A stretch of DNA of 58,722 bases from an uncultured bacterium (GCA_964523735.1 CAZFYZ010000007.1:1-58722), one strand, 5' to 3'. Shown: positions 1,788 to 21,143, numbered from the stretch's first letter. The notes: a model not told the origin generated them from the letters alone. Made by a program: numbers and translations.

Positions 1788-2439
1788 GTACTTGAGGCCA
1801 TTACGGCTCGTCGCCCGGATTCACGCCCAGATTCATGAGTTGACTTCGGTGGCCGCATCCTCTTGTAGTCGAACCCCGCTTCGATTACGTGATTCAGAGA
1901 AAACTCGCCAAACAGAGAGAAAATGTCCCGAAACGTGGGTTTTCAGGGCAAAGCCCGACCACAAGATTTGGTTCGGATAACACGGGGAAGAAGCGGCTTT
2001 CACGCTCGTAAATACGCGAAAACCCCGCCGGGAGTCCCGACAGGGTCAATTCGCATAGAGAGCTTTTCGATTTTAATGCTTGGTAGGCCAAGGAACCGCT
2101 AGCGAAAACTCCAACTCACCTTGGCCACTGCGTCGGTGTTATCTGAAATTCGCCGAACCACCACATCGTCGCCGGTGGCGAATCCTCCACCCCGTTCTCA
2201 GGATGAGACCGCAATCTGAGCTCGAAGTCACCATCGATAGGGAGTCCGCATCCGTCCGAAACCCTGTTTTCGCTAGCAACCAAACGGCTCAGCGACCAAG
2301 CAACCATCAGTGAGAATTCGCGCGGGCGGGTTTCTGGAGAGCAGGGAAATGCACGAAACGAACGGCCACGACCAAGTAATATGCCGTCCAGATTGAGCAT
2401 CCGTATCATTCGCTGACGCAGCGTATCTGGCTTGTAGAA

Positions 2440-2646
2440 TCAGCCCACTGGACGCACGATGCGAAGGGCTAGTTCGGCATCAGCTAGGCGTGAGAGGCTC
2501 TGGATAAGCTCGTCGTAATCGTCGCCGAGCACCCACGGCTGATCTATCACCACTGCGTCCACACCCTGATGTTTCGCATCGTCGATCAGCGCGATGAGAG
2601 CAGCGAACTTCTTGTCATAGCCGACTGGCGTTGAATGTCGAGCCAT
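2440..2646 (-). CDS. hypothetical small protein (68 aa)
   Basis: Clean ORF directly downstream of the HExxH gene on the same strand, with protein-like composition. No motif recognised. Confidence 0.35.
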   Translation of the reverse strand: MARHSTPVGYDKKFAALIALIDDAKHQGVDAVVIDQPWVLGDDYDELIQSLSRLADAELALRIVRPVG

Positions 2647-2776
2647 ATAGCCTCCAGTTCTGTCTCTTTCAGTGGTTACCAGCTCGCCGCACCAGTGCCA
2701 TTACGCTCCGGGAATGGGCAGACGCGGCGCATCATACACCGGATGTAGATTCACAGCGATAATCGTTAGTAGGCAA

Positions 2777-3625: not shown

Positions 3626-4040
3626 GGAAGTGGTGAATATCGCTTAGCTATGCGGCCACAGAGCATCGTCCCGATGACAGTCCGGGCGGTGTGCGGCCGA
3701 TTCCTGCCAGTGCCTCTGCCAATTCCGCGCAGCCATGTTACCACCGGAGCACAGATATGTCACGTGCTGACTAGGAGCGCATGTGCTCTCCCCTCGTCGC
3801 CGCTCAGCTAACCGCTGGCTAGCCGCCGATAGCTTGGGTCATCGTCGGGATGGTCGTGTCGTCGGGGGGAGCGAGGAACAATACTGGGCGGTGAGTGTGG
3901 ATGCGGAGGCAAACCAGAGACGCGATGTCCGCGTCTACATTCGCCAGGCCAACGGGGGAGCGGCAAACTCACGTGCTGTGCTCCAGAGTGGGCGATACAT
4001 CTCCGCAGCCGTGCTGAGCGGAAACTGCTCCCAATGCAGA

Positions 4041-4084
4041 AATGCGGCTTACGGACCGGCCACAAAACCCCCGTAAGCCGCATT
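4041..4084 (-). terminator. strong hairpin (14-bp perfect stem, 16-nt loop) just downstream of the 1594-aa gene
   Basis: AATGCGGCTTACGG (4041-4054) and CCGTAAGCCGCATT (4071-4084) are exact reverse complements. The hairpin lies 26 nt past the stop at 4110. No U-tract follows, so intrinsic-terminator function is unproven. Confidence 0.45.
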
Positions 4085-4109
4085 GTTGGAAACAAATACG
4101 CCGGTGGTT

Positions 4110-7100: not shown

Positions 7101-8894
7101 GTTTGAGACAGGATCTCCATATATAGCGAACTTGCCGCCAGGAGTGGCTGCAACCGCTCTATCGATCATCCTCTTGATGTCACGTGGCATCCAGCCAAAA
7201 CCGGGAACGTTTTCAAGAGGGTCCTCCAGCGCGTCAAGTCTGCCTACCATATATCGGAGCTTCCAGTGCATTGGCGGAATCTGTACCGCATCAGTCCAAG
7301 TCACCGCACCCGCGCTGCCTGTTCCGTACTGGATGCACGGCCTGGACTGGCAGCAGAGCAGGTAATCACTCCCGCCCGTCCATGATACCGAAACGCTATC
7401 CCACGGAAAGCCAGTAAACACGTTCCAACCAGAGTTGCTGTCGTACAGGTATCCTTTTGGGCTGCCACTTCCAGTAACGGCAACCTTGTAGGAACCATCC
7501 TGTGCAGGGTACACCGCGATGTCATCCATGGTTGCCCTGATCTCCGGGTTGGCAATCTGCTCCTGCCAAGTCTGCCCGCCATTTTGAGTGAACAAGACAC
7601 AGGCATAGGTAACCTGATGGACAGTATCTACTTTGTATCCGGCGGCTACTCCCTCATAGTGGTCAGTGGCCCATCGCATCCAGACCTTGTAAATGGTGGA
7701 GTTGGCTGGAATACCGGAGGTCTGATGCGTCCACGTGCTGCCGCCGTCCAAAGAACGGAAGATGCCTGTGTTGCCGCACATCCAGACATTGTTACTGTCC
7801 GCGACAGCCACGCTGCAAGGAACAAACGTGCTTCCGAGCTTGCCTGGAGCATTATTTATCAACTCGCTTGTGCGGTCGTTGGGCTGGCTCCAGGAAGTAC
7901 CGTCAGTGCTCGTGAACGTCCTGATGCGCCAGCCAACAGTCCATCCTACCCAACCAGCACCTGACCGCTGGAAAGATATGCCGCAGACTGAAGGGCCGCA
8001 TTGGTGCTGATCACCCCAAGGCGTAGCGAGAACAACCGGTTTCCACGTCTGGCCAGCATCTTGGGTGAACAGAACACTGCCACCCTCGTCAGTACGCGTC
8101 GACGGTGTGCCACCAGTTGAGACAAAAGCGGTCTGCTGGTCTACTATCTGTATGTCCGTACAGTTATAAGCGACAAACTGCTTGTCTTCATCGTTCACCG
8201 GCGACCAAGACCACTGTCCACTGCTGAGCACGCCGTTGTAGATGATTCCATACGTTCCTACGGCAATGGCTGTGGACGGGCTGAGAAAGCGCACTTTGCG
8301 GAACGTTGGAGGGCTGCTCTGGCTATCGTTTCCTGAGCTCAGCCTGAATGCCGTAAAGTCTGTATCCGTTTCGGAATAGCGATTAGTTGCACCCATACCT
8401 CCGGTGCAGTATCTCCAGAGCGGAACGTTGCCCCAAGGAGCACGCTGGAACAACAAAGGCATGGTTCCATCAATGGAAGCACCTGTGCGCTCGCCATACG
8501 CAATCCGGGAAGGAACGCCATAGCACATTACGACACACTTTATGGGGTCCACGGATGGATTGGCCTTGTAGTAGTCGGGGTTGGATGGATAAGGGTTGAA
8601 GTTGTTGAGGAGATATTGCTCGATCTTATCAACAAGGCCATCACCTAACGCATTACGATAGCTCGATGGATCAGCTACCGCCTCGCTCGTAACGGGAGAG
8701 TCAACGTCGAAAAGGTTCCTGGCAGGTATGTTGCGTTTGTAGGCATAGTATAGTGCCACGTTTTCGGAGTATGCGTGCTGACTATTGTAGACAACAAGCA
8801 CTTCTGATGGAAGTATGCCTGCCTCAGTTGGAACATTAGTGAGAAATGCAGTCACAAGCACAACAGAGACAAGCAAGAGTCGCATTGGCTTCAT
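4110..8894 (-). CDS. giant secreted protein with BNR/Asp-box repeats and Ig-like domains (TIGR03790-like N-terminus)
   Basis: 1594-aa ORF. Signal peptide MKPMRLLLVSVVLVTAFLTNVPTEAG. The N-terminal ILPSEVLVVYNSQHAYSENVALYYAYKRNIPARNLF resembles, from memory, the TIGR03790 family seen in PEP-CTERM loci. Asp-box motifs DAGQTW, DGGSTW, NGGQTW and DGTSW. The C-terminal half is beta-rich and Ig-like. Confidence 0.85.
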   Translation of the reverse strand: MKPMRLLLVSVVLVTAFLTNVPTEAGILPSEVLVVYNSQHAYSENVALYYAYKRNIPARNLFDVDSPVTSEAVADPSSYRNALGDGLVDKIEQYLLNNFNPYPSNPDYYKANPSVDPIKCVVMCYGVPSRIAYGERTGASIDGTMPLLFQRAPWGNVPLWRYCTGGMGATNRYSETDTDFTAFRLSSGNDSQSSPPTFRKVRFLSPSTAIAVGTYGIIYNGVLSSGQWSWSPVNDEDKQFVAYNCTDIQIVDQQTAFVSTGGTPSTRTDEGGSVLFTQDAGQTWKPVVLATPWGDQHQCGPSVCGISFQRSGAGWVGWTVGWRIRTFTSTDGTSWSQPNDRTSELINNAPGKLGSTFVPCSVAVADSNNVWMCGNTGIFRSLDGGSTWTHQTSGIPANSTIYKVWMRWATDHYEGVAAGYKVDTVHQVTYACVLFTQNGGQTWQEQIANPEIRATMDDIAVYPAQDGSYKVAVTGSGSPKGYLYDSNSGWNVFTGFPWDSVSVSWTGGSDYLLCCQSRPCIQYGTGSAGAVTWTDAVQIPPMHWKLRYMVGRLDALEDPLENVPGFGWMPRDIKRMIDRAVAATPGGKFAIYGDPVSNADFLGQLEAAGISSGNIACSTSIPSVTGQSDVMAYFGPHMIIDAAYQYISWGRPGHTWHPGGVQFYNTNDGQSFRIPLHIWGLNAKTDGLTSGWLKVFGMWASTVYTTHKVVLCTQPGGTPLAGGTVMFASNGTAEIDLSGVTWPPGQGVYVEIRFPDNDQDPDLQGKCIPNGRDYWSASAIPGIISTGKRYKIEAARDVTSQYIREGASGAITAIDEPGLPCGAGAMLDYATGYCWGETALRYLGLGFTSAVMGDPLMAPFAVQPTVSFQSPTPADGSRIRGQVMLSATAAPGGTGNIDRVEFYAVGTDQNPRLIGTDRDAPYFFVWDTSNGFANGAYTIRAIAYQLNTHVGISATLPRTVTLDNSANPTVYISSPDTDNQVISHETPVVATISPSASRVQFWLSWNNTLVYGLEDNSPPYECSVTSAMVPDGAYRVQAVAFDDATGTASYSSLRQLIVHNSGPLYYSVVDAANQPDGTSLMLANRPVTAGTSVAMKSTPSSSANVFYVEDTDRAAGIRVETSVVGSMSNGRLLSIQGILHRGQNDQERYLEATDIWDMGAVEVPKPLGMSNASIGGKAPTGTPGIVDGVGVYNTGLLVTAWGKVAYVGSDFVYLNDGTGSMSSYSMYDGNNLEKARVVPIDGSAIPATDYGVGGLRVYFGDFAKPGIDDYVSVTGISSVEEIGGERVRLLRVRSNCDLTYHDRYVPAKIALGSLVRLDNLQPIEAGTKVRLVDKRVTWNGVINGVHSFWACNLQPDLQINVSLPCYTQLQTNDIVTITGTLMSEPGVPSFTQVDPSTGHIYLGGSSVGAMSLSLPTAASPAETDRSKIGGGPFRAWPGATADEILASESFKKQYSQVGAIGWALSQPDGSVIDLSAEATSGQWYDGRVFGLREWFEPILNGPRLYLYLDKPVRVDGLDRDVTIDIAGATLTTLSSGQRALVRPTAVYAYTNQDGRFAPPLPWLKYLQPATGMRDSSLINSSLDDAWPWKLKVAP

Positions 8895-9472
8895 CTTCTC
8901 GACCTCATTCTCATGCCAAGTAATGCAAGGGCGGGAACAAGCAGCCCAAGCAGTGTGGATGGCTCAGGCACTGCTACTACCCGGAGTCCGAGATATTGAT
9001 TCTCTGCGCGGACGTACTCACGCCAGTACGAATCATAACTGGCAGACTGGTAACCGGAAAGGTCCTGCGACCAGATAACGCTGATTGGGTTCAACTGCAG
9101 ATCCATCAATACGAGTTCCAACCGCATCTCGTTTGCATCGTAATCAGTGTTGTAATGGAAGGTAACTCGTGTGGCATTGCCGGGCAGCATAAGTCCTTCA
9201 CGGGCATACGCACTTGTGCCTACTGGCACACCCAAAGTAGCCGTTGGAACGGAGACGGTCCAGTCCCATCCTGTAGGCTTGCTAACCTCGTATGGCCCAT
9301 AGCTACCCGGTTGAAAGGTCAAGCCCGCAGGGTATCCGTAGAATGACCCTTCGTAGTAAACCATGAAGTTGTTTATTTTGGCGTATGATCCTGCCTGAAG
9401 ATCGGCGGCTGGACTGGCCGACCCCAACGCAGACAGTAAAACAACTGCTAAGATAATCGCAAGTCTTCTCAT
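8891..9472 (-). CDS. PEP-CTERM sorting-domain protein
   Basis: C-terminus VAVPEPSTLLGLLVPALALLGMRMRSRR has the VPEP motif, a TM helix and an Arg cluster. N-terminal signal MRRLAIILAVVLLSALGSASPA. Start placed at the internal ATG preceded by GGAGGAG. The stop overlaps the start of the 1594-aa gene by 4 nt. Confidence 0.8.
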   Translation of the reverse strand: MRRLAIILAVVLLSALGSASPAADLQAGSYAKINNFMVYYEGSFYGYPAGLTFQPGSYGPYEVSKPTGWDWTVSVPTATLGVPVGTSAYAREGLMLPGNATRVTFHYNTDYDANEMRLELVLMDLQLNPISVIWSQDLSGYQSASYDSYWREYVRAENQYLGLRVVAVPEPSTLLGLLVPALALLGMRMRSRR

Positions 9473-9473
9473 T

Positions 9474-10154
9474 TCAATCTCCTCCATAGTCAATCCATGA
9501 TTCTACTGCACGACGCTTGGCCCTAACCCGCCATCCACATAATCCGACTAACGGCAGAGCAAGGCAGGCAAATGATCCTGGTTCAGGAACGATGGCTAGG
9601 CGAAATGCATATCCGCCTATTCCATAGGGATCCGTGAGCGATACATGTGCATGCTGAGGTGTGATACTCCACGGACCATTTGAGGACCACAACAACTTAT
9701 CAAAGCTCCACGCGCTGCTCCTGTACTGGACTTGCCATAGCTCCAGTCGCAGGAGATTGGAGCCCCAGTGATCTACAGGAAAGGGATGTTGGCTTTGGTC
9801 CACGGCAAAGTAGTTGAAGTCAAACTCAGAAACGCCCGCACTTAGGGCACTAAAGCAGTAGCCATCATAGGCCCCGGTGGTTCGTGGACCAGTGTGCGAC
9901 ACATTCGTACCAAGCTGTATCTGGCCCTGGTAGTAAGGGCTCGCAGGCGGCTGTATAGAGTACAGCCAGTCACCTGGATCAGACTCAGCATGATATGAAT
10001 ACGGAAACAGATCACCCCAGCCGCTCCACCCTGGGTCCGCCCAGCAATAGTAGACCTGACCAGATACAACAACGCCACTAGCCGATTGAGCCCACGCACC
10101 TGTGGTCAGAATGGCGACTAGTGCCGAGATTATCAGGAGTGTAACGATCTTCAT
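9474..10154 (-). CDS. PEP-CTERM sorting-domain protein
   Basis: IVPEPGSFACLALPLVGLCGWRVRAKRR lies near the C-terminus. Signal peptide MKIVTLLIISALVAILTTGAWAQ. Start moved to Met40 of the track ORF (GAGGTG RBS), which removes the overlap with the upstream gene. Confidence 0.8.
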   Translation of the reverse strand: MKIVTLLIISALVAILTTGAWAQSASGVVVSGQVYYCWADPGWSGWGDLFPYSYHAESDPGDWLYSIQPPASPYYQGQIQLGTNVSHTGPRTTGAYDGYCFSALSAGVSEFDFNYFAVDQSQHPFPVDHWGSNLLRLELWQVQYRSSAWSFDKLLWSSNGPWSITPQHAHVSLTDPYGIGGYAFRLAIVPEPGSFACLALPLVGLCGWRVRAKRRAVESWIDYGGD

Positions 10155-10209
10155 CTGGACACACACCTCATCCTTATTGTTGTGCACATTTCGTGCCAGC
10201 CAGACCTCT

Positions 10210-11859
10210 TCATGGCTGTAACGTCGACTCAGCGCTTGCCTGATCGACCTGCGCGCTGACCACGGCAGCACTATCGCTATTCAGAGAACGTATCACAGCC
10301 CTGGCCTCTCCGACTGCATCAGTAATCGAGCCTGACGAAACAATGGTGCTGCGACTTGTCCTCCACGTGACGGGCATCTCAATTAAGCGCCGACCCTCTT
10401 CGTCCCTAACAATCGCCGTAACCTCAGTCTCTCTACTTCCATCTACCAGAGCGACCGAGGATGCTGTCATGATATCTACCCTTCTGCCTATTGTCGGAAG
10501 TGAGAAATCACAGGTTGCATCCGTTGTGGTGCTGCGAAGCCGAACAAGTTTAGTTGTGGTCTTGTAGCCTGTTGTCGTGGTGGTGACTGCGTGGCTGCCG
10601 TAGGGAATCGTCAGAGTATAGTGCGCTGTCCCATTCACAAATGTCGCTGTAGTCGACGAGCTTCCACAGTATATCCGAGCCGAACCACCGTCAGCCCCTG
10701 GAGCAGCTATAGTACCAGACACGATACCGTAACCAGACTGCTGAAGACTCTGCAGATACACACTGATTCCAGAGTCCGGTTTCCAGACAACGCGTATGTC
10801 TGGGCTTTCTGCATCGGATGCTCCATTCACTGCCACGTAGGAATCTACTGTCGGTAGAGTTTCTGTAGAAAGATCATATATCTTGACGCCAACATGCCCG
10901 TTACCACCATCGAGATTGCTGCCATCATCAATGAAGAAGATCCGGTTCCCCTGGTCCACATAAGTTACCTTGCCCCAAACCCTGACGAGAAGACCAGTGG
11001 TGTCGAGTCCATAATGGAGGTGCTTGTTATTCATTCCGAAGTAGCTGGCAGATGGGTAGTCGGTATCAAGGAGAGAGACCGTATCTGCCTGTACCACTCT
11101 GGCACCGTTGTTGGTGTCCATCTGTCCAGCAATATCTACCAGCGAGCCTTTTGAAACCCTGGCGCTTCCCGTCACCCAAATACCAAAGGATCGATCACCT
11201 CGCTCAATGCAGAACCTGTTACCCGCGATGGCCGTCACAACCGCGCCATTCACGTTGACCGATGCGCCGTCCGGCAAGGTCTTTATAGAGTCTCTCGAAC
11301 CTGGCGCAGGAAGCGGGGCATCAGGATTATCTGGAAGAACTGGCAACTGTCCAGCTAATGTGGCGGTAGCCGTAGAGACAGCCACTAGGGGTCGAGTAGT
11401 GAGCAAAGAATCGAGCATGCCCTTGGGGATCGGAAACGAATACGGTTTGCCTCCGGAGTCGCAATATACCTGTACATTCTCAGGAGCAACTACTACGACT
11501 CTCTGGCGGAAAGCCGCTCCGGTTCGTGTGGTTCCTTCGAGAGTCTGAATAGTCCCTGTCACGTCTACCGTCCAGTACTCGTGAACTGGCAACTGTGAAG
11601 TGCTGACAACGAGCAGTTCAGGCTGTTGCGTAGAAGCTTCGCTCCACATCTTCACCGCGAATGACTGGCCGCTCTTTCCGCACCATAGGACCTGAGCACA
11701 GGTCAGAGTCACGGTGGAACCATCCTCTTGAGCTATCGCTGCACCGATGGTGTCTTGAGCACTGTCATTGATCGTCGGTGTGCTCCATCCAGCGATGGAA
11801 CCAGTCAGTAGCAATACTGCCGCTACCAGACCTACTGTTTGCTTGCCCCGACATGTCAT
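10210..11859 (-). CDS. secreted protein with carboxypeptidase-regulatory-like and bacterial Ig-like (Big_1-type) domains
   Basis: 549-aa ORF. Signal peptide MTCRGKQTVGLVAAVLLLTGSIAGW. GIVSGTIAAPGADGGSARIY..TAHYTLTIPYGSH resembles a CarboxypepD_reg fold. The C-terminal ETEVTAIVRDEEGRRLIEMPVTW..GEARAVIRS resembles an invasin/intimin Ig domain. Confidence 0.75.
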   Translation of the reverse strand: MTCRGKQTVGLVAAVLLLTGSIAGWSTPTINDSAQDTIGAAIAQEDGSTVTLTCAQVLWCGKSGQSFAVKMWSEASTQQPELLVVSTSQLPVHEYWTVDVTGTIQTLEGTTRTGAAFRQRVVVVAPENVQVYCDSGGKPYSFPIPKGMLDSLLTTRPLVAVSTATATLAGQLPVLPDNPDAPLPAPGSRDSIKTLPDGASVNVNGAVVTAIAGNRFCIERGDRSFGIWVTGSARVSKGSLVDIAGQMDTNNGARVVQADTVSLLDTDYPSASYFGMNNKHLHYGLDTTGLLVRVWGKVTYVDQGNRIFFIDDGSNLDGGNGHVGVKIYDLSTETLPTVDSYVAVNGASDAESPDIRVVWKPDSGISVYLQSLQQSGYGIVSGTIAAPGADGGSARIYCGSSSTTATFVNGTAHYTLTIPYGSHAVTTTTTGYKTTTKLVRLRSTTTDATCDFSLPTIGRRVDIMTASSVALVDGSRETEVTAIVRDEEGRRLIEMPVTWRTSRSTIVSSGSITDAVGEARAVIRSLNSDSAAVVSAQVDQASAESTLQP

Positions 11860-12366
11860 GCATTAGACCTCCTATGCTTAGAATGTATTGCGGGTATAGC
11901 TAGTGTAGGAATCAGCGGACCCAATACTACACAGGCCCAGCCGGTATAGAGTTACATAATAATCACTCTCCATTCACACGACACGTGCGGATAGCCGCAG
12001 CCCCTGGTGGCACGGCCCCCCCATGCAACAGCCAGTTTCTATCCCTGCCGATCCCCACTGCAGGAGTTCAGGGCACTCTACTCACCTGCCTGCCTGCTGT
12101 CTGACTTGCTGAGAAGCGCGTCAGTTCCCTGGCCGTGCCAACCAGCCACGGTTCCATTATGCGCTACTTATCAGTAGCGTGTCAAGTGGGAGAACGCGGA
12201 TTAGGCAATCACTCTGCCTCAAAGAAGCTAGGCATCTTCCTGGGCAGTCTTTCCAGTTCAGTGCTTGACTTGTTCGGGCGTGAGTCTATGCTTCACAGTC
12301 ACGGCGCTCCTTGAGGTGGTTTGTGTTTCGAGGATAGACCGGAGGTCGCCGATGTGCCCAGGGTAG

Positions 12367-12974
12367 TTGCAGATGTCTGATTGTCATGCTGCACTGACTT
12401 CCGGAAATACTGTCCTCCAGGAAGTGACAGAGAACGTTTCTCCTGAGCTTTCTGGAATCCTCGCCAAAGCCCATGAGTTCCTCGTAACGACTGTCGCCGA
12501 GAGCACCCATGAAGTCTACTCCAGGGATTGGCAAGCGTTGCCGGCTGCTGCAACGATCCCCGGCTGTCGGTCCTGCCACCTTTCGAGATGAGAGGCTTGT
12601 AATCCTGCTCCGGCGAAGCAAGACCGACCAGAAAGGCAAGGGACGTTAGGTAGGCATTCCGCGGGGTAAGAATCTCGACACCTGTCCTGTGACTGCCATC
12701 CGGCACTGGCTGGAGCTCTCAGGCATATCGGATGGCACTATCTTCAGAGGACTTGACCGGCACGGGCACACCGTCTCGGAGAGGGGGCCGTCGGAGACAT
12801 CATTAGGCGGGCTGCAAGCGCAGTGGGCTCGATCCGTCCCGGTACAGTGGTCATAGCTTGCGCAGCGGCCGTTGCACGCAAGCCAGCAGAGCAGGGGTAG
12901 CAGAACACATCATCGCTCAGCAGACGGGTCACCGCTCACTGGCTTCACTCAGCGCCGACGCCCTTGATCTATGA
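12367..12974 (+). pseudogene. degraded tyrosine recombinase (phage integrase) remnant
   Basis: Three plus frames must be stitched together. They are an N-terminal SAM-like piece (AESTHEVYSRDWQA), then RLVILLRRSKTDQKGKGR followed by an in-frame TAG, then DTCPVTAIRHWLELSGISDGTIFRGLDRHG, then after a frameshift GLDPSRYSGHSLRSG...IIAQQTGHRSLASL. The region holding the first catalytic Arg is deleted, and the ORF stops before the expected catalytic Tyr. Confidence 0.7.
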
Positions 12975-13214
12975 GCCAGAGATCATCAGTTCCGCCTCGG
13001 TTGCGGCTATCAGGGTCGAGAGTGGCATCTTGAGACCGTCAGAGATAAGCAGCAGGTTCTTCAGCGTGACATTGCGCTCACCGCGCTCGACGGAGCCGAT
13101 GTATGTACGGTGTACTCCAATGGCGTCTGCGAAGGACTCCTGGCTGTAACCAAGCCTGCTGCGCCGAGCTTGAATGACCCGTCCCAGGCCACGTTGCATC
13201 TGTTTGCTGTCCAT
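12969..13214 (-). CDS. XRE-family (Cro/CI-type) HTH transcriptional regulator
   Basis: LGRVIQARRSRLGYSQESFADAIGVHRTYIGSVERGERNVTLKNLLLISDGL is a textbook HTH_3/XRE pattern. Start placed at MDSKQ (Met9 of the track ORF). Confidence 0.8.
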   Translation of the reverse strand: MDSKQMQRGLGRVIQARRSRLGYSQESFADAIGVHRTYIGSVERGERNVTLKNLLLISDGLKMPLSTLIAATEAELMISGS

Positions 13215-13273
13215 ACCGGGAGTGTACCCACATGGCAACTATACGTCTACACTCTATAAGTAGCATGCGGGCG

Positions 13274-13771
13274 TCAGTCAGGCCAACTGGTTCTGCCAGA
13301 TGATAAGGCATGCAGATCGATGTACTCGCCGGCCACGTAACACCAAGCCAGCACACTCTCACCGCTGTCGACGAGGATTGGCACGAGCGCGCGTCGATAC
13401 AGACTCGGCATTCCCGGCCGGAAGCCCTCTAGACGGTCTATAGGCGGTAGGCAGAGTCTCGGGTCGGTGAAATGCATCAGCTCTCCTCGAATCGTCTGCC
13501 AGTCGCGCGTATCCGGGATTGCATCGACAGGCGTTTCCGCAGTCAAGCGCCATTGCAGGGCCACATCCGCCAGTGGACTAGCGGTCCCCGTGGCAATGAC
13601 GTCGCCATCCGGAACACGCAAGACCGGAATGCCTGACGGTAGTCCATAGAGGCGTCCGCGCACTTGCGCCTCTTCTATGTGGATCGCGTCTCGGCAGAAC
13701 CGGTCGTGGTTCCAATAGCCGCGCTTCAGCGTGCCGTAGACGAACAGACTAAGTGTGTCCCGCGTCTGCAT
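13274..13771 (-). CDS. gamma-glutamylcyclotransferase (GGCT / AIG2-like) family protein
   Basis: LFVYGTLKRGYWNH near the N-terminus, then RGRLYGLP, IRGELMHF and PPIDRLEGF...LYRRALVPI...AWCYV, as in the GGACT/AIG2 family. Start set at Met43 (MQTRD), after the stop of the upstream gene. An alternative GTG lies 21 nt upstream. Confidence 0.8.
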   Translation of the reverse strand: MQTRDTLSLFVYGTLKRGYWNHDRFCRDAIHIEEAQVRGRLYGLPSGIPVLRVPDGDVIATGTASPLADVALQWRLTAETPVDAIPDTRDWQTIRGELMHFTDPRLCLPPIDRLEGFRPGMPSLYRRALVPILVDSGESVLAWCYVAGEYIDLHALSSGRTSWPD

Positions 13772-13808
13772 TTGTAGAACTGTCTTCTTCACGTTGTTCT
13801 CATTCCTC

Positions 13809-14642
13809 CTAGTCGTCGCTGGTCTCGTCGTCATCCCAGGCGGTGAATCGTCGAAACCGGCTGGCCGGTGCCGAACTTGCCAACCGGAATAGCTCACTGG
13901 TGCAGCGCGGAACGTCGCCGCAATCGAAGGTCAATAGGCTCATCGGGGCGGTGGGCAGCACGCGCCACCCGTTCTCTTTGGCAAGCACCACGTCGAGGTG
14001 GCCAGCGTCGGAAGCGTAGACTATGGCTCGATGCTCCTTGTGGTACCTAAGTTCCAGTGGCTTATTGCCCTTGATCATCAACACTGTCGCTGGGTCCTGT
14101 AGGGACGCCAGCACTGCGCTTACTTGTCCGCGACAGAGAGCCAGTCGAGCCCGGATCGCTGCCATATCGAGGCGACCGGCGTCAAGCGTCGCATCAGCGA
14201 TGCGAAAGATGAGTTCGCTGTCCACTTCGGCGCATCTGGGCAGTCCAAGTAGGTCGAAGAGCTCATCGGCATTGAAGATAGTGCCGTTGTGAGTCCCGAT
14301 GACATTGCCAGCGCGGATGGGGTGATTATTCTCATTGTTGCTGGCATCGCCAACGGTCTGCCAGCGAGTGTGTCCCACCAGCAGCGTTGTACGAGCATCA
14401 ATGCCGTCGAGCACTTCCCTGAAGCCTTTGCCCTTGATGAAGTCCGAGGCCTTGATCGGCTGCTTGAACAGCGTATGCTCGCCGTTGGATCTGAGCAGCG
14501 CCATGCCGGTTGCGTGAGGCCCGCGCTTCTCACTAAGGAGCAGCAGATAGGTGAACAGCCAGCCGAACAGCTTGTCCCGATGCTCCTGATCGTCCCTCCC
14601 GCGTTTCGCGGTTCCGAAGATCACTCCGAGTTGCGCACACAT
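13809..14642 (-). CDS. class-II (Ntn-type) glutamine amidotransferase domain protein
   Basis: N-terminal Met-Cys ([10 protein letters not shown]). By eye it aligns to the GlmS/PurF GATase domain: RGPHATGMA, GHTRWQTVGDASNNENNHP, THNGTIFNADEL and EVDSELIFRI. The start ATG shares one base with the amidoligase stop (TGATG). Confidence 0.8.
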   Translation of the reverse strand: MCAQLGVIFGTAKRGRDDQEHRDKLFGWLFTYLLLLSEKRGPHATGMALLRSNGEHTLFKQPIKASDFIKGKGFREVLDGIDARTTLLVGHTRWQTVGDASNNENNHPIRAGNVIGTHNGTIFNADELFDLLGLPRCAEVDSELIFRIADATLDAGRLDMAAIRARLALCRGQVSAVLASLQDPATVLMIKGNKPLELRYHKEHRAIVYASDAGHLDVVLAKENGWRVLPTAPMSLLTFDCGDVPRCTSELFRLASSAPASRFRRFTAWDDDETSDD

Positions 14643-15595
14643 CAGGCATCACCTCCCTCAGCGCAGCAGTCTGCGACACAGCACATCTCAGCAGCAGGCT
14701 TTGCAGATTTCGGCTTCGGCCTGCCTCGCTTGAACGCCGCGTCGCCGGGCATCGCGGACAACAGATGCTTGCGTGCGGTCTTGAACTCGTCGCCGTTGAG
14801 GCCGAGATGGATCAGGAATACGCGGAAGTCGTACTTGGCGGAGCTTGGATCGAACTGACGCTTGCGGCTCGAGGCCCCGCGGCTGTTCAGGGCTTTGGCG
14901 GCAATGGCCAGAACGAGCTGGACTGCAGCCTTGACCTTGCCAGCGTGCAATGTCGCCTCAAACCAGCGGAACTCGACGGTGCCACGATACCAGACATTGT
15001 GCAGGTTCACCCCGTGGTAGCGCGTGCTGTCATAGTGCGTCGGGTGGCTGTTGTGGAAGCCGTACCAGATGCGGTTCATCTGATCCTTGGTCTTCGGGCG
15101 GCTTCTCTCGATTCTCGCGATAAGCTCCGCACTTACCGGCTTTGTATATTGATTGAGCCTTTCCTGGCTCACGCCTAGCGCCGTCAGTATGAGCGGTTCT
15201 TGTTTGTGCACGATCTTCGCGAGGTTCGCCAGAGTTTTGCCGTCGAAAGCGCTTGCATCAACATGGATGTGCATGCCGCATTTATCATCAACCGTGGCAC
15301 CGCACCTGCGGATTGCTCTCACGACATCCTGTAAAGTGGCGATGTCGTCATAACCGAGGACCGGGCTCACGACTTCCGCCCGCAGGTCTGGGGTAACGCT
15401 CGTTAGTGACGCGTCGGTGACGACCTTCCAGATCCTTCCTTGCCCGTCCGTGATCTCCCAGGGATCATACGTCGAGGGGCTACCTATGTGCCTGGCACTA
15501 CCGCTAACCACCGATTGGATGGCATTCGCGACTGTCCCACGATCCCGCTTGATGGTCTCTATTTCTATTCCGAATCCAAGTTCCTGCAGCTTCAC
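14642..15595 (-). CDS. amidoligase family protein (Amidoligase_2-like, glutamine-synthetase/GCS2-related fold)
   Basis: 317-aa [36 protein letters not shown] and [13 protein letters not shown] follow the pattern I recall for Pfam Amidoligase_2. GTG start with GGAGG 9 nt upstream. Confidence 0.75.
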
Positions 15596-15622
15596 TAAGT
15601 CTGACCTCCACTCTGTGTCAGC

Positions 15623-15636
15623 AGAACATGTGTTCT
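15623..15636. promoter_or_regulatory. inverted repeat AGAACA-TG-TGTTCT (GAAC-N4-GTTC), candidate operator
   Basis: Perfect 6-bp arms lie 28 nt upstream of the amidoligase start, in the divergent intergenic region. The core matches the GAAC-N4-GTTC (Cheo-box type) LexA-site architecture. It could equally be the XRE operator. Confidence 0.35.
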
Positions 15637-15730
15637 CCTGTCATCACATTCATTGCCTCATCAGGCGGCAGGAAGTCAAGAGATATAGCACGAAGATGAA
15701 CAAATACGGTGTTCTTACCTGATACTGTGG

Positions 15731-16234
15731 ATGACTGGAGGACTACGCACGAAGAAAGGATCGCCTGATGCCATGTCCATCGACACTGATCTGCTGAGGG
15801 GTGTAATGCAGGACGCAACGAAGCTGGCAAAGCAGTACCGACAACTGACTGGTAAGCCGCTTGGCATCACGGGCGAAGTAGGCGAATTCCTTGCGGCCGA
15901 GCTGCTTGGCCTCAGACTCACCAATGCCAGGTGCCCGGGGTACGATGCCATTGCACCTGACGGACGACGCATCCAGATCAAGACAAGGTGTCTGCCGCCA
16001 GACGCGAAGCTGAGCCAGCGACTGGGGTGCATCAAGCTGGACTGTGAGTGGGACACCGTTGTCCTCGTGCTCATCAATGATGACTTTGAGTGTACTGCGG
16101 TCTACGAAGCGTTGAGAGGCGATGTCGAGCGTGAACTCAGGAAACCAGGCTCCAAGGCAAGAGCGCGCGGAGCCCTAGGCGTACGGAAGTTCATGTCGAT
16201 TGCTCGGCCTGCTTGGAGAAGAGAGGACCTATAG
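15731..16234 (+). CDS. small PD-(D/E)xK nuclease-fold protein (DUF6998-like by recollection)
   Basis: ITGEVGEFLAAELLGL, then GYDAI, then RRIQIKTR give an E...D...(Q/E)xK arrangement. The alternative start Met15 is at 15773. The next gene starts 3 nt after the stop. Confidence 0.5.
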   Translation: MTGGLRTKKGSPDAMSIDTDLLRGVMQDATKLAKQYRQLTGKPLGITGEVGEFLAAELLGLRLTNARCPGYDAIAPDGRRIQIKTRCLPPDAKLSQRLGCIKLDCEWDTVVLVLINDDFECTAVYEALRGDVERELRKPGSKARARGALGVRKFMSIARPAWRREDL

Positions 16235-16237
16235 CAA

Positions 16238-17257
16238 ATGCGAGTCCACACCCACAATGGATTGCCTTATCGACTTCCCAACGAACTGAATGATTTCCAG
16301 ATGGCGATGTACATCCATCTGATCGACTGGAAGAGAAGCCATCTGACAGAAGAGCCGGGCTATCATGGCGGGCATCCATATGACGCCGTGCTTCCCGATG
16401 AGTTCAGGAAACAATATCAGCCGATCTACCCTCCAATCGTTGAAAGGTTCCTGAGTCATCAGCGGCGCTTCCCGTTCAAGACCCATAAGTTCATCGGTCA
16501 CATGGCAAGCTCGCAGGCCGCGTGCGCGAGTCTGTTTCTTCCCTTGCTGCAGCACCCCGATGCTGCAGCCGAGGTGCTTCGTAGTGTCAAGCCTGACTTG
16601 GACAGGATCGCCACCGACCACCTGGATGCAGGCTTCCGCATAGAGTTCTGGGATGAGCCAGATAATATGCTCAATGACCACACGCCAGCTGCTGGCACCG
16701 ACGCCGACTTCGCCATCGCCTACTACGACAAAGCTGGCGGCCTGAAGCTCTGGCTGATCGAACACAAGCTCACGGAGAGCGAATTCACCACTTGCGGTGG
16801 ATGCCGCAGCAGAGGCCGGAATCCTCAGATATATGGATGCGATTCGGCGGCCGATGTTATCTCAGACAAGGACCTGTGCTACTACCACGGTGCTCTGGGC
16901 TATCGCTACTGGGACATTACACTGTCGCACCCTGAGGTGTTTCGGTCGGAGCGTCTGCAGGCATCAAATGTGTGTCCGTTCCAAGGAGGGATGAACCAGC
17001 TCTGGCGCAATCAGCTCTTGGCGCTATCCGTCGAGTCATCCGCGGATTGGCCATACAGCGAGGTCTGGTTCTCGGTAGTGCGGCATCCTATGAACCACGC
17101 CCTCACCGATGTCATCATTCAGTTCAGGCAGATGCTCGGACCCGCTGGGCGGTTCTTCGACTTCACGTCAGATACGCTCATCGCAGCAGCAGAGCGGATC
17201 GGTTACTCCGCTTGGCGCGACTGGCTGAACTACTACAGGGAGCTGTATCTCTTCTGA
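16238..17257 (+). CDS. putative restriction-endonuclease-like PD-(D/E)xK protein
   Basis: 339-aa ORF. GTDADFAIAYYD...LKLWLIEHKLTESEF gives a D...E-x-K core, and HMASSQAACASLFLPLL lies upstream of it. No methyltransferase is adjacent. Confidence 0.55.
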   Translation: MRVHTHNGLPYRLPNELNDFQMAMYIHLIDWKRSHLTEEPGYHGGHPYDAVLPDEFRKQYQPIYPPIVERFLSHQRRFPFKTHKFIGHMASSQAACASLFLPLLQHPDAAAEVLRSVKPDLDRIATDHLDAGFRIEFWDEPDNMLNDHTPAAGTDADFAIAYYDKAGGLKLWLIEHKLTESEFTTCGGCRSRGRNPQIYGCDSAADVISDKDLCYYHGALGYRYWDITLSHPEVFRSERLQASNVCPFQGGMNQLWRNQLLALSVESSADWPYSEVWFSVVRHPMNHALTDVIIQFRQMLGPAGRFFDFTSDTLIAAAERIGYSAWRDWLNYYRELYLF

Positions 17258-17301: not shown

Positions 17302-17547
17302 TCACCTCGTATCCAGCAGATCCTCATTGAGGCGCTGCACGTGCTGTTCTTCGCGCTCTATGCGGGTCATGAGCTCTTTGAACTCGTCTGACAGATCGGG
17401 CGAGCCGCCGGCGGCGCTCTCAAGCTTCCGGATCCTGGCGTCAAGGTTCGCAAGCAAATCGAGCACATGGTTTCGGATGACGCCATCCCGCTTCTCCTTG
17501 AGCGACGGGATGAACTCCGTCATCCCGCCGCGTTGTTTGACCAGCAT
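17302..17547 (-). CDS. hypothetical coiled-coil protein (81 aa), last gene of the tail block
   Basis: Clean ORF 11 nt downstream of the fibre gene. Heptad-like charged sequence (LDARIRKLESAA...FKELMTRIEREEQHVQRLNEDL). Confidence 0.5.
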   Translation of the reverse strand: MLVKQRGGMTEFIPSLKEKRDGVIRNHVLDLLANLDARIRKLESAAGGSPDLSDEFKELMTRIEREEQHVQRLNEDLLDTR

Positions 17548-17558
17548 CGTGCGCCTCC

Positions 17559-20500
17559 TCAGCTCAGTGTTGCGCCAAGAGAGTGGATGCGCGGATAGAC
17601 CAGGTTGTTGCCGGTGAGGATGGCCTTGTAGCGAACGCGGGTGCCCGCGGGATTGGTGAATGTGCGCAGGTAGACGTATTCGGTCCAGGTCTGGTCAACC
17701 TCGCGAGTCGAATCGAGCGCCATCGGCTCCCACGTAGCGCCGCCGTCGTTTGAGGTGAACCACTCCATCGAGCACCCGCTGGGTATGTTCATCTGTGCGT
17801 AAACCTTGGTCGATTCCACCCCTTGCGTAAGCTCATTCTCCCGGCTGATGTACGTGCCGCTGGGGCTATTGAGATAGCCTATGAGGTTCACGTCGAGGTA
17901 ATTCAGAGCCGGAGTGTCGTTTGGCGTGCTGCTTGTGAGCCTCGCCCGGACCGTGATCTGCGCGGCCACATTCGGCAAGCTCTCCTCCTCTTCGGGCACT
18001 ATCGCATCCCACGAACTGCCGCCATCGGTCGAGTAGTCCCAAGTGATGCCCGTGCGCTGCGGAATGGAGGAGTACTCATCCAGGTTGATGTCGGTGAACT
18101 GCACCCCCGTCACAGGCTTGAAGCGCACCTCACCCTCGGCCTCGAAGTCGAAACCGTAGATCCGCATCGCAAGGTCGGAGCCGTTGAGTGGAGTCCAGGT
18201 CTCGGCGTTGGAGCTTTCAAGCAGGGCACCCGCCGCATAGGTCTGCTTGGTAATGACCCCATTCTGCCCCATCTGTCCGAGGGTCGCTACGCGCACGCGA
18301 TAGTTGGTGCTGTCGGTGAGAATGACTACAGCGTAGCTGGTGTTAGCATCAGCGCTCATGGGATTGCTGAACATGACCTTGGTCTCGGCGTTCAGGTTCA
18401 CCTCGGCCGGCGAGACGACCTGCTGGGCGTATATGACGTCGTTGGGCAGTCCCGTGGTGACTCCGCGAATCTGCACGGTCACGGGAGTGGACGCGTCCTT
18501 CTTCGTGAAGTAGATGCCAACTGCGGAGATGACCCTGTTCTCGGTGAAGCTGAACGTCTGCGCGAGCGGGTCCCACCTGTTCCAGCCCCACCACCATCGC
18601 CACACCGTACGAATCACAGGGACGCGGATGATCCGCTCCTGGATGATGGTCTGCTGTTGGATAATAGTATTGGTGACCTCGACACGTTCGACCCGAGTCA
18701 CGACCAGCGGGTCGTTTATCTGCAGACTGGCCTGAGCGGAATACGTGCCGTCAGTGACTTCGACGATCCGGCTGCCGTTGCTGGCGCTCTCCGGGATGAC
18801 AAATGATGATGTCACCCGCCCAGCAGCATCGGAATGAACGTCTGTCGCGACCACCTGGCCGTCGCAACGGATGGTAATATGCTCCGCGCTGGGAGTGAAG
18901 TTCGATCCAGTGACTGCGATCCCAGTCTGTCCCCTGCGGCCAATGTTCGGGGTCACCTCGACCGTCGCCGGAGGCTTTTCGAACACGGCGTAGGGATTGA
19001 TGTTCTTCTCCTCAGACCAGTCGAGCTGCTGTGCGAGCACCTTTTCAGTGCCAGGCAGGAGAACGAGGCTGCCCGCAAAAAGTGCGCTGCTCGCGGCGGG
19101 ATTGACCTGCAGAACACGTGAAGTCGCGGCACGGGCAGGTGCTACGAACTTGCGAATACCATCAACGCGCGCGCTCCATTCGGAGTGGAATGTGTCCGAT
19201 TGAGCTTCGTTGGAGAAGTCATCTGAGTAGATGCCTTTCTTGGTTTGCGCGTCCCTGTTCTGCAGTTCGTTGTTCATCTGATACTGCGCGTCGTTGTATT
19301 TCAGGTCCTCCACGTCTTGGATCATCTGGTGGATCTGGGACATGGTGATCCGTGTGAGACCGAAGTTCCGGATCGTCATCGCGACCGAATCGGCCGGGCA
19401 GTCGACGCTGCACAGAGCCAGGCTTCCCTCCGGCACTATCGGGAGCTTTGGAAAGTCCGAGGGCGCGCCCTCGATACGTTTGAGTTCTCGAGCTGTCGCA
19501 TAGATGATGTCCTTCCTACCGAGGTAATAGTCGTAGTCGATGCTGCAGTTCGAGCCGTTCACGGGATCACTGCCGACTCCGTTTCTGCCGAAGTTGATGA
19601 CACTTGTGTTCCCCGGGGCCATCTCGGGCGAAGGCTGGGAGAGTCCACTGGAGTTAGACGCTGGCGGCGTGCTGGTCGTGGCCTCATCCACGGCGTCGTC
19701 GATGTATGATGTGACTCCCGAGCCTACTTCCTTAAGCCTCTCAAAGCTCGTCCTGCCCGTATTGGGCGACGCCCGGTATATGCGATAGCCTGTAGCGCCG
19801 CTTATCGGCTTCCATGTAATAAGGTTAGCCTCTCCAGCGGCCGTCTGGCGTGAGACGACCCGACCGCTGATGTATTCGGTCTCGCCAGACGCCGAGAGCG
19901 CCGTGACCACATAGAAGTACTCGGCTGCGGCGGGATAGCCGGAGCGTCCGAACCACCCGCCATCGACATAGTCCGTACCCTCGATCATCTGCTTCACATA
20001 AGTCCAGCGGACGGTGTAGGTCGTCCCTATCGCGGGCTCACTGCCACTGCCCAGCCAGTCGACATAGTTGCCGCTCTGCTGCCAATCAGTACCTTCGGCG
20101 AAAACCGTCGCGCCCTGGCTCACCTCGATAATGTCCACGACAGGATTCGGCACGAGCAAGTCCTCGCCGCCACCGACCGATCCACGCGTGATGTTCGAGA
20201 CTATCTCCACTATCGCCTCGACCTGGGTGGTCTCTTTGAGAGGTGTACAGTTCAGGGCGTAGCTGCGCTGGCCGGTGACGAACGTCTTCTGTTCTCCCCG
20301 AACACTCTTGGTCGCGACCGACTTGGGAACCACGGTTGTCGTCGGCAGGTCCTTCTGGAGACGATATCCCTGTATGTATGCGCGGCCTGCGTTGGTGATG
20401 ACCCGCACGCTTGCGCCGTCGTTTGAGCCGATGAAGCTGTCGAATCCCTTGACGAGATAGCTGCCCGCCTGGTCGTAAGTCCTTTCCGCCAGGTTATTGA

Positions 20501-21143
20501 GGAGGGAGTTCAGACCCTCGGCAGCGGCAAAGGAAAGCTGGTCCTCGGTAATAGACGCGACCGTTATGCGGCTGCCAGGTAGAGTGCCCAGGAAGTCACT
20601 GAGGTAGATGCTGGACTTCTCCTGCACCGTCGCCGTAACATCACCACTATCGCGGTCGAACTTGTATATGGGAACCACTTTACGCTGCGTGACATTACTT
20701 GGCAGGCTCTCGCCGCTCGTGTCGTGATCCCTGAGAGAGAGGACCCATTTCTCTCGCTCCGCTGTCTGCTCGCCTGTCGCAGGGTTGATAAGCCCAGCAT
20801 CCTGGTTGTAACCATAGTTAGACTTCAAAAGCTCGACGTACACATAGTCGACGCCCGAAGTCTTTGCCGGATCATAGGTAAGGACCGCGCCCGGTACGCT
20901 CTCGATATGCCCGTCGATGTAGGTGACACCGGCTGACACCGTGACCACGTTACCCGCGACCGTCACTACAAGCCCGGAGATTATCGCTCCCTCCTTGAAG
21001 AGCAGGTCGGCGACTTTCTTGTGCTCATTGATGACGATGTCCTGGGCTTCGTTTAGCTCCGAGTCCAGCAGGTCTCTGTCCTGATGGTATCTCACCCGCT
21101 TATAGTTCTTGGTCGGGTCGAATGTGTTTCTGGAGATGGTCAA
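17559..21143 (-). CDS. large tail fibre / host-recognition protein (DUF4815-like N-terminus, FN3-like and IPT/TIG-like modules)
   Basis: 1194-aa ORF. The N-terminus FDPTKNYKRVRYHQDRDLLDSELNEAQDI resembles DUF4815 phage proteins (recollection). ITWKPISGATGYRIYRAS is FN3-like. VEVTPNIGRRGQTGIAVTGSNF is IPT/TIG-like. It sits at the distal end of the tail module. Confidence 0.75.
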   Translation of the reverse strand: MTISRNTFDPTKNYKRVRYHQDRDLLDSELNEAQDIVINEHKKVADLLFKEGAIISGLVVTVAGNVVTVSAGVTYIDGHIESVPGAVLTYDPAKTSGVDYVYVELLKSNYGYNQDAGLINPATGEQTAEREKWVLSLRDHDTSGESLPSNVTQRKVVPIYKFDRDSGDVTATVQEKSSIYLSDFLGTLPGSRITVASITEDQLSFAAAEGLNSLLNNLAERTYDQAGSYLVKGFDSFIGSNDGASVRVITNAGRAYIQGYRLQKDLPTTTVVPKSVATKSVRGEQKTFVTGQRSYALNCTPLKETTQVEAIVEIVSNITRGSVGGGEDLLVPNPVVDIIEVSQGATVFAEGTDWQQSGNYVDWLGSGSEPAIGTTYTVRWTYVKQMIEGTDYVDGGWFGRSGYPAAAEYFYVVTALSASGETEYISGRVVSRQTAAGEANLITWKPISGATGYRIYRASPNTGRTSFERLKEVGSGVTSYIDDAVDEATTSTPPASNSSGLSQPSPEMAPGNTSVINFGRNGVGSDPVNGSNCSIDYDYYLGRKDIIYATARELKRIEGAPSDFPKLPIVPEGSLALCSVDCPADSVAMTIRNFGLTRITMSQIHQMIQDVEDLKYNDAQYQMNNELQNRDAQTKKGIYSDDFSNEAQSDTFHSEWSARVDGIRKFVAPARAATSRVLQVNPAASSALFAGSLVLLPGTEKVLAQQLDWSEEKNINPYAVFEKPPATVEVTPNIGRRGQTGIAVTGSNFTPSAEHITIRCDGQVVATDVHSDAAGRVTSSFVIPESASNGSRIVEVTDGTYSAQASLQINDPLVVTRVERVEVTNTIIQQQTIIQERIIRVPVIRTVWRWWWGWNRWDPLAQTFSFTENRVISAVGIYFTKKDASTPVTVQIRGVTTGLPNDVIYAQQVVSPAEVNLNAETKVMFSNPMSADANTSYAVVILTDSTNYRVRVATLGQMGQNGVITKQTYAAGALLESSNAETWTPLNGSDLAMRIYGFDFEAEGEVRFKPVTGVQFTDINLDEYSSIPQRTGITWDYSTDGGSSWDAIVPEEEESLPNVAAQITVRARLTSSTPNDTPALNYLDVNLIGYLNSPSGTYISRENELTQGVESTKVYAQMNIPSGCSMEWFTSNDGGATWEPMALDSTREVDQTWTEYVYLRTFTNPAGTRVRYKAILTGNNLVYPRIHSLGATLS

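Follow-up and report, generated by a model that had tools for sequence, protein, structure and literature searches.

A 58,722-nucleotide stretch of DNA from an uncultured bacterium (GCA_964523735.1, CAZFYZ010000007.1:1-58722; hereafter the window) carries, beside the end of a prophage tail module, genes for an amidoligase, a class-II (N-terminal nucleophile, Ntn) glutamine amidotransferase-type protein (GATase), a gamma-glutamyl cyclotransferase (GGCT) and a small XRE protein. This locus raises the question of what a phage does with three such enzymes, and of whether they are defence cargo or belong to the phage itself. We found that the triad behaves as a lineage-stable module of one widespread prophage family, not as swappable defence cargo. 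The gene combination is already known in phages; what is new here is that it is a stable core part of one widespread prophage family and has its own candidate operator.

An open reading frame (ORF) listing revealed four co-directional ORFs on the minus strand, which were called independently in the public gene call for the same contig (Table 1). The original prediction had described these four genes as well as the translational coupling of amidoligase and GATase, and both descriptions were borne out by the DNA, with the starts of the GGCT and XRE genes corrected. In particular, the amidoligase stop codon TGA (14644-14642) and the GATase start codon ATG (14642-14640) share the A at 14642 (TGATG), and a GGAGG was present eight bases 5' of the ATG. 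The GGCT and XRE boundaries given in Table 1 were adopted because the public gene call matches homologue lengths. A longer GGCT ORF with its start at 13897 overlaps the GATase gene and was supported neither by homologue lengths nor by the public gene call; it was rejected, and the GTG at 13792 was used instead. The XRE protein is most likely 76 amino acids (aa) long, within an ORF at 12969-13238. Family membership was searched with Pfam (curated cut-offs), NCBIfam, PHROGs and PADLOC v2. All three enzyme families that had been named in advance were recovered by Pfam above the cut-offs, and the PHROGs names agreed.

To identify relatives, one genome per GTDB species was scanned, which yielded 356 loci; the 80 best were used, and the window proteins were placed in them by tblastn. 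Among the best 80 of the 356 loci, those from Armatimonadota were the closest, with amidoligase identities of up to 89%. Anaerolineae, Dehalococcoidia, Desulfobacterota, Acidobacteriota, Nitrospirota, several Gammaproteobacteria and complete genomes of cultured strains were also present, as were Verrucomicrobiota, Planctomycetota, Gemmatimonadota, Zixibacteria and Bacteroidales. The hosts of the relatives belong to more than 10 phyla, and the isolates that carry the prophage include Desulfosarcina widdelii PP31, D. alkanivorans PL12, Syntrophus buswellii DM-2, Desulfofustis glycolicus DSM 9705, Desulfobulbus rhabdoformis DSM 8777 and Ectothiorhodospira shaposhnikovii DSM 243. Metagenome amidoligases were 90-92% identical to that of the window; 4473 amidoligase homologues were found at E<=1e-10, and the best 120 of the 4473 were all at least 67% identical. 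Near-identical DNA was not found among deposited phages.

The gene order was kept across these loci: Baseplate_J, Tail_P2_I, three to four tail genes, the gene of the tail-end protein DUF4815, an 81-aa gene, amidoligase, GATase and GGCT. Typical identities to the window were ~70% for the amidoligase and DUF4815, ~50% for the GATase and GGCT, and 40-65% for other tail proteins. We also assessed the position independently of the amidoligase, using IMG/VR loci picked by DUF4815 alone (43 loci, 58-90% identical). The amidoligase was found at the same place in 25 of the 28 such loci that had at least 1.5 kb past the tail genes. In the amidoligase loci with enough downstream DNA (n=82), the GATase was present in 80, the GGCT in 79 and both in 77, in the same order and all after phage tail genes. 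The genes of the set either overlap or lie close to each other. This neighbourhood check agreed with the earlier statement that the triad travels together in phages and prophages.

The gap between the 81-aa gene and the amidoligase gene was below 350 bp in 75 of 97 loci and 0.7-5.9 kb in the rest, and the long gaps hold unrelated genes, which identifies the slot upstream of the triad as the cargo hot spot. In the window this slot contains two nuclease genes, neither of which was detected in any related locus compared. Elsewhere it contains a 437-aa protein without a Pfam match (L020 group), secreted proteins (L063) or a mercury-resistance set that is MerA-, MerT/P- and MerR-like by eye (L068 7285-9754, L108 12146-14615 and L119). 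The prophage family can therefore carry metal resistance where the window has nucleases.

These results bear directly on the original prediction, in which the location of the triad was regarded as typical of defence or counter-defence cargo. A defence role would amount to abortive infection: the ligase and the cyclotransferase, fed by the glutaminase, would run a futile cycle that burns ATP, drains glutamine and glutamate and stops an incoming phage. The three activities do close such a cycle on paper, the genes lie near the cargo hot spot and beside restriction-like nucleases, and an operator-like palindrome upstream of the amidoligase suggests tight repression. However, no PADLOC v2 model was matched by the amidoligase, the GATase or the GGCT, the near-universal conservation at a fixed place is unlike that of variable defence cargo such as the contents of the neighbouring slot, and strictly lytic phages carry the set too. 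With the amidoligase kept in nearly all of the DUF4815-picked loci and the cargo located in a separate slot, the cargo claim did not hold, and we consider a defence function very unlikely.

The triad is under strong purifying selection, and the amidoligase remains ~67-75% identical from Armatimonadota to Proteobacteria hosts. Additionally, the three enzyme genes have been swapped together from one phage backbone to another: in L091-L093, DUF4815 was 85-90% and XRE 86-88% identical to the window, but the amidoligase, GATase and GGCT were only 53-58% identical.

The fourth gene followed a different pattern. The XRE protein matched PF01381 HTH_3 in Pfam (3.6e-13) and generic "control protein" models in PADLOC, and it was detected only in Armatimonadota-type relatives (L003/L007, L008, L019, L091 and L093), where it was 82-88% identical whether the amidoligase allele was close or distant (~53%). 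In other clades, an HTH_17 (excisionase-type) gene was found after the GGCT gene instead of XRE, and in relatives this gene was preceded by a strong near-consensus promoter directly after GGCT. Because XRE is clade-limited and conserved independently of the amidoligase allele, we placed it outside the enzyme cassette, with the integrase and lysogeny end of the prophage; the four-gene cassette proposed at the outset was revised accordingly. Within the cassette, the amidoligase-GATase interval measured 300-700 bp in 81 of 95 loci (~85%). This interval encodes a 113-174-aa protein that overlaps both neighbours and has DUF5049 (PF16468) as its C-terminal part; examples are L038 10972-11496, L020 10993-11493 and L004 10960-11301, and the database protein P0063 is a DUF5049-amidoligase fusion. 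The window has no DUF5049 gene. The direct TGATG junction was found only in the window and in three Armatimonadota-type loci, and direct amidoligase-GATase coupling is the exception among the relatives.

The amidoligase matched PF12224 Amidoligase_2 (E=1.8e-58, 198.8 bits against a cut-off of 22), with residues 5-231 aligned on profile positions 2-244 of 245, and phrog_2443 amidoligase (1.7e-79). No NCBIfam model was matched by the amidoligase or by the GGCT, and the amidoligase profile retrieved nothing from the PDB sequences at E<=1. We compared the AlphaFold2 (AF2) model of the protein (predicted local distance difference test, pLDDT, of 82) with solved structures by Foldseek. The top matches were 1TT4 and 1R8G (YbdK/GCS2), followed by many glutamine synthetases (GS), with a probability of 1.0; the GS-type matches include gamma-glutamylmethylamide and 1-naphthylamine ligases. 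E11, E13, H109, H111, R204, E208 and R210 did not vary among 99 unique relatives and map to core strands of the AF2 structure. As judged from the model, the protein is probably an ATP-dependent carboxylate-amine ligase of the GS/GCS2 type. Characterised members of this fold activate the glutamate gamma-carboxyl as an acyl phosphate, and GCS2/YbdK, GS, PuuA and GmaS, which the model resembles structurally, share this ATP-dependent chemistry. Compared with the GS family, the window amidoligase is much smaller than GS, shows a template modelling (TM) score of ~0.4 and contains an extra C-terminal domain of ~70-90 residues. This domain (residues ~232-300, window 14700-14900) lies outside PF12224. 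We also observed that the C-terminal 70-90 residues match the C-terminal part of shorter Firmicutes phage proteins, such as a 227-aa "virulence-related protein" of Erysipelothrix phage phi1605 (L133 3590-4273), which adjoins an adenine methyltransferase and a S-adenosylmethionine synthetase.

The GS-like ligase fold is common to PafA and Dop, and a pupylation-type tagging system would have the amidoligase join the C-terminal glutamate of a tag to virion or host lysines, the Ntn protein deamidate or trim the tag, and the GGCT clear gamma-glutamyl-lysine. The operon adjoins virion genes, and the small co-translated DUF5049 protein of most relatives, fused to the amidoligase in P0063, could serve as tag or adaptor. 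However, no tag gene is present in the window, the DUF5049 proteins have varied C-terminal ends, and PafA and Dop were absent from the top 50 structural matches. Pup-like C-terminal tails ("EGGDA" at the end of the amidoligase, and "LGGES") were rejected as tags, the codons in question being the Shine-Dalgarno sequence of the downstream gene. Overall, we regard such tagging as quite unlikely.

The GATase matched PF13522 GATase_6 (E=1.2e-15, 58.1 bits against a cut-off of 27) and phrog_14519 glutamine amidotransferase, together with weak GlmS and PurF N-terminal matches in NCBIfam; it has no fused synthase domain. Its Met-Cys start and its likeness to GlmS, both noted in the original prediction, were evident in the alignments. 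The MC start, with Cys2 at the nucleophile position, was present in the window and in all 86 of 86 unique relatives, and the GlmS glutaminase domain (1XFF) aligned with HTRW, HNG and E-x-D-[ST]-E in register. R93, N119-G120 and D141 correspond to R73, N98-G99 and D123 of GlmS and were invariant among the relatives. The residues that bind glutamine through its alpha-amino and alpha-carboxylate groups are kept in the protein. When the family profile was compared with solved chains, GlmS (7e-13) and PurF (8e-6) ranked first, and no EgtC-type chain was found at E<=1.

This ranking, the intact glutamine-binding residues and the TGATG coupling of the two genes would suit a two-subunit amidase-ligase resembling MurT/GatD. 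In such an enzyme, ammonia from the GATase would be used by the amidoligase to amidate an envelope or host carboxylate, for example the peptidoglycan stem glutamate, and the resulting surface change would block superinfection, with the GGCT in a side role. The available citing papers likewise credit Iyer et al. 2009 with a cell-wall modification role for the phiEco32 amidoligase. However, the retention of GGCT in 79 of 82 loci is left unexplained by this arrangement, a DUF5049 gene separates the proposed subunits in ~85% of the relatives, and the gut Firmicutes phages known as "Ca. Heliusvirales" have an amidoligase without a GATase. The hosts include Dehalococcoidia, a group that is not known to have peptidoglycan. 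Moreover, MurT and GatD belong to different folds, and the comparison is one of analogy only. We therefore consider this arrangement unlikely, while giving it real weight.

The GGCT matched PF06094 GGACT (E=1.4e-16, 61.6 bits against a cut-off of 22.8) and phrog_2520 gamma-glutamyl cyclotransferase, and human GGACT was its closest solved relative by sequence, weakly. The motifs claimed earlier were located at residues 19-25 (YGTLKRG) and 103-105 (GEL), and Y19-G-T-L-K23, G103 and E104 were invariant among 78 unique relatives. Taken together, the fold matches and the conserved Cys2, glutamine-site residues, YGTLK and Glu indicated that all three active sites point at the gamma-glutamyl/glutamine moiety.

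We therefore tentatively propose, a little short of an even chance, that the triad would carry out ATP-dependent gamma-glutamyl amide ligation with glutamine as input and turnover by the cyclotransferase. In an ATP-consuming step, the amidoligase would convert a carboxylate into an acyl phosphate; all characterised enzymes of the fold act on the glutamate gamma-carboxyl, and by analogy this would be the carboxylate here. The same enzyme would then link the activated group to the amine of a small molecule or of a lysine-type side chain. The Ntn-Cys protein would bind glutamine or a gamma-glutamyl compound and either feed the ligase (glutamine to glutamate and ammonia) or hydrolyse the amide, and the cyclotransferase would cleave the gamma-glutamyl amine to 5-oxoproline and the free amine. 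The simplest complete scheme, which would need no other enzyme, runs from glutamine to glutamate to gamma-Glu-X to 5-oxoproline and X at the cost of ATP. Its role would be a stable function of the phage lineage, switched by its own operator. We infer the gamma-glutamyl chemistry, the order of the steps and the biological purpose of the triad.

Related logic is found in the biosynthesis of ergothioneine (EgtA/EgtC) and butirosin (BtrJ/BtrG), in which a ligase adds a gamma-glutamyl group and the Ntn-Cys protein EgtC or the GGCT-fold protein BtrG removes it. In contrast to these pathways, the triad has no tailoring enzymes between the ligase and the removers. BtrJ is an ATP-grasp enzyme and not GS-like, and the GATase family profile, which recovered GlmS and PurF, did not recover any EgtC-type chain.

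Several points weigh against the gamma-glutamyl cycle. The structural similarity of the amidoligase to its matches is modest, and it has no solved sequence relative. The GATase is closer to the ammonia donors GlmS and PurF than to EgtC-type proteins and is coupled to the ligase, and therefore a glutamine-dependent amidation complex fits at least as well. With one ligase next to two enzymes that both seem to cleave amides, the set appears redundant, and the scheme leaves the DUF5049 partner of most relatives unexplained. Furthermore, the amidoligase is accompanied by the GGCT alone in Heliusvirales and by the GATase alone in a Laroyevirus; since other phage lineages have two of the three genes, the three enzymes do not have to act in a single linear pathway.

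Since 2009, amidoligase/GATase/GGCT sets have appeared in phage annotations, among them those of Pseudomonas phages considered for therapy and of abundant phages from the gut and the sea. Iyer, Abhiman, Burroughs and Aravind reportedly predicted phage-type Amidoligase_2 systems in 2009 (Mol Biosyst 5:1636) and are said to have proposed peptide-tag roles for them. As far as the citing papers describe them, these systems likewise place a GCS2/GS-like amidoligase beside a class-II GATase-like Ntn protein and/or an AIG2/GGCT protein in phages or prophages. The window differs from them, to that same extent, in having a plain triad without ATP-grasp, a fixed post-tail place and its own candidate operator, with DUF5049 added in most relatives. 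An experimental assignment of function was not found in the searchable literature up to 2026, in line with the earlier statement that none was known; papers to 2025 call the function unknown or cite the 2009 prediction.

We compared the triad with related sets in other phages. In the LUZ24-like Pseudomonas phages (Bruynoghevirus; LUZ24 gp18-gp22 and UFV-P2 ORF21-29), Amidoligase_2, GATase_6-type and AIG2/GGCT genes are likewise co-directional. However, these phages are lytic podoviruses, and their block lies early, beside primase and helicase genes, and adds a COOH-NH2 ligase, an ATP-grasp (RimK-like) enzyme and a longer GATase of ~490-510 aa, which is ~26% identical to that of the window. The closest amidoligases among deposited phage genomes (35-42%) were found in Heliusvirales and related prophages, where a GGCT gene follows. 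In contrast to the window, these phages lack a GATase and encode a DUF4314 protein as well as a second amidoligase paralogue, which is degenerate, and their main amidoligase gene is placed between DNA methyltransferase genes and the small terminase gene; the Heliusvirales paper does not mention the amidoligase or GGCT genes. Additionally, an amidoligase and a GATase are annotated in Arthrobacter Laroyeviruses, and the amidoligase combination is annotated in OM43 phages. The papers that annotate such combinations, including one on a Planctomycete phage, refer back to Iyer et al. 2009 and say or imply that the function has not been put to the test.

A deep-sea Planctomycete phage with amidoligase, GATase, GGCT and glutathione synthase genes was reported to promote growth on nitrate or ammonium (PMC10945688), which suggests that such sets might help infected or lysogenic hosts to incorporate more ammonium or nitrate into amino acids. 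However, that report is of a correlation only and includes no enzyme assay, the triad has no close housekeeping counterparts (no NCBIfam model for the amidoligase or GGCT), and a glutaminase and a cyclotransferase consume amino-acid nitrogen rather than build it. An auxiliary nitrogen metabolism is thus highly improbable, marginally more so than a defence function.

In viral metagenomes, amidoligase and GATase domains are also found together with thymidine-hypermodification genes (PMC8989533). GATases have been listed alongside the T-hypermodification machinery (PMC13229309), and the Firmicutes phage amidoligase adjoins DNA methyltransferases. These associations would fit a ligase and a GATase that amidate or extend a carboxylated or aminated base so that the DNA escapes restriction. 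However, no hydroxymethylase, 5-HMUDK, amino-acid:DNA transferase or TET/JBP gene was found in the window. In the relatives L192 and L159, a Pfam scan of the 10 largest ORFs in the 10-kb early region that precedes the terminase revealed none either. The replication genes and the operon are at opposite ends, and the GGCT would have no obvious role. DNA hypermodification is accordingly extremely unlikely. In the early region of L192, a close relative (650-4222), we observed a RecD2-like helicase split by a LAGLIDADG intein; an NrS-1-type primase-polymerase and a second integrase come after it.

Switching of the proposed gamma-glutamyl cycle would depend on the control region upstream of the amidoligase gene, the elements of which are listed in Table 1. 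The architecture of this region is kept in relatives with the ~53% amidoligase allele and in relatives without the nuclease insertion, and the majority clade has a different upstream region that is equally conserved. Two copies of the motif GAAC-N4-GTTC were counted in the window, where 0.71 would be expected, and a single site of this kind therefore proves nothing. The extended palindrome (C)AGAACA-NN-TGTTCT(G), in contrast, was found only at the amidoligase-upstream position in 30 related loci (439 kb). We take its form to be that of a Gram-positive-type LexA (Cheo) box, as a candidate only. The palindrome was also present in L009, in which no XRE was detectable. A function as a general prophage repressor site was considered and dropped, as the palindrome was not found in the sampled early regions.

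A riboswitch or leader RNA upstream of the amidoligase was rejected: Rfam revealed no family at this position in the window and only a chance-level long non-coding RNA match in L075, and RNAalifold revealed no consensus structure among 36 relatives. The conserved upstream blocks were therefore read as protein-binding or promoter elements. A sigma-70 scan found nothing upstream of the amidoligase in the window. A terminator scan flagged none after the 81-aa gene in L004 or L038, and a hairpin with a T-run, a candidate terminator, was seen by eye in many relatives. The cargo slot that sets the triad apart from the tail genes, the conserved upstream region and the promoter after GGCT in relatives all support a separate unit. 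From these features of the DNA, we conclude that the triad is probably transcribed as a separate unit under a candidate operator.

In a bolder reading, the triad would be an obligatory, separately switched lytic or induction step, kept across more than 10 phyla under an operator of LexA-box form, and its target would be either an amine shared by all hosts or the pool of glutamine and glutamate. Examples would be a phage-driven cycle from glutamine through gamma-Glu-X to 5-oxoproline, or the glutamylation of a conserved host or virion target. We consider this reading improbable, at about the level given above to tagging. If true, it would be a new kind of phage takeover chemistry, and if the function is a dispensable metabolic tweak, the finding is a routine annotation. 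The lineage offers a clean system for testing, with cultured lysogens, a compact three-gene version in the window and enzyme genes that can be told apart from the true cargo.

The right-hand 46 kb of the window is a temperate myovirus-type prophage with all of its genes on the minus strand (Table 1). The 81-aa gene follows DUF4815 directly in nearly all relatives. The location suggested at the outset, between an integrase remnant and the tail-fibre end and beside nuclease-like genes, was confirmed on both flanks. When the intact 362-aa integrase of L093 (PF00589; 15404-16492) was used in tblastn, three pieces were recovered in frames 1, 2 and 3 with an internal gap; the integrase gene is frameshifted and internally deleted, and the other prophage genes examined were intact. 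L093 has a homologue of the window Big_1 protein beside its integrase, and therefore the integration neighbourhood is shared.

Table 1. Positions of the enzyme genes, control elements and prophage features in the window.
Feature	Position	Strand	Remarks
Amidoligase (Amidoligase_2)	14642-15595	minus	317 aa; GTG start
Class-II (Ntn) glutamine amidotransferase-type domain, stand-alone	13809-14642	minus	277 aa; ATG overlaps amidoligase stop
GGCT/AIG2-like gamma-glutamyl cyclotransferase	13274-13792	minus	172 aa; GTG start; ribosome-binding site (RBS) AGGAGG upstream
XRE/HTH_3 small protein	12969-13199	minus	76 aa (most likely)
Upstream control region	15596-15772	minus	177 bp
RBS GGAGGT	15604-15609		
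Perfect palindrome AGAACA-CA-TGTTCT	15623-15636		~40 bp before amidoligase start codon
Conserved GCAATGAATG block	15647-15656		among relatives GCA(A/T)T(G/C)A(A/T)TG
-35-like TTGACT	15674-15679		
Distal AAGAACAC..TGTTCA	15697-15716		
Tyrosine-integrase pseudogene	12316-12971	plus	prophage end; convergent with XRE
DUF6998 / methyl-directed type II restriction endonuclease (REase)-like gene	15773-16234	plus	PF22522 7e-11; PADLOC mREase_II 3.2e-32
REase-ARP / PD-(D/E)XK (PDDEXK_13) nuclease gene	16238-17257	plus	PF22558 1.9e-17; PF20796 4e-16
Coiled-coil-like protein, last tail-module gene	17302-17547	minus	81 aa; no Pfam or PHROGs match
DUF4815 tail-end protein	17559-21143	minus	1194 aa; phrog_877 1.9e-239; PF16075 in public gene call
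Baseplate proteins	between tape measure and DUF4815 gene	minus	
Tape measure	33556-37170	minus	
Sheath	38467-40314	minus	
D12 N6-adenine DNA methyltransferase-domain protein	44538-48119	minus	1193 aa
MuF fusion	49364-53965	minus	1533 aa
Mu-like portal	53962-55650	minus	
Large terminase	56259-57782	minus	

The whole prophage (window 17302-58722) recurs at ~60-75% protein identity across phyla (loci L004-L086 and L090-L215), and complete cultured genomes that contain it were found in Desulfosarcina, Syntrophus, Dichelobacter and Ectothiorhodospira. Structural proteins so close across phyla are unusual for a tailed phage. We also observed that the giant D12-domain and MuF proteins lie within the head and packaging module; they may be carried in the virion or ejected. 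The surface-protein genes left of the integrase remnant were taken as host genes. On this host-side flank, two minus-strand genes (8891-10271 and 10210-11859) encode proteins with PEP-CTERM-like tails by eye (VPEPS.. and VPEPG..), and next to them are the genes of a Big_1 protein of 549 aa and a Big_7 protein of 1594 aa, suggesting that a cluster of cell-surface genes borders the attachment site.

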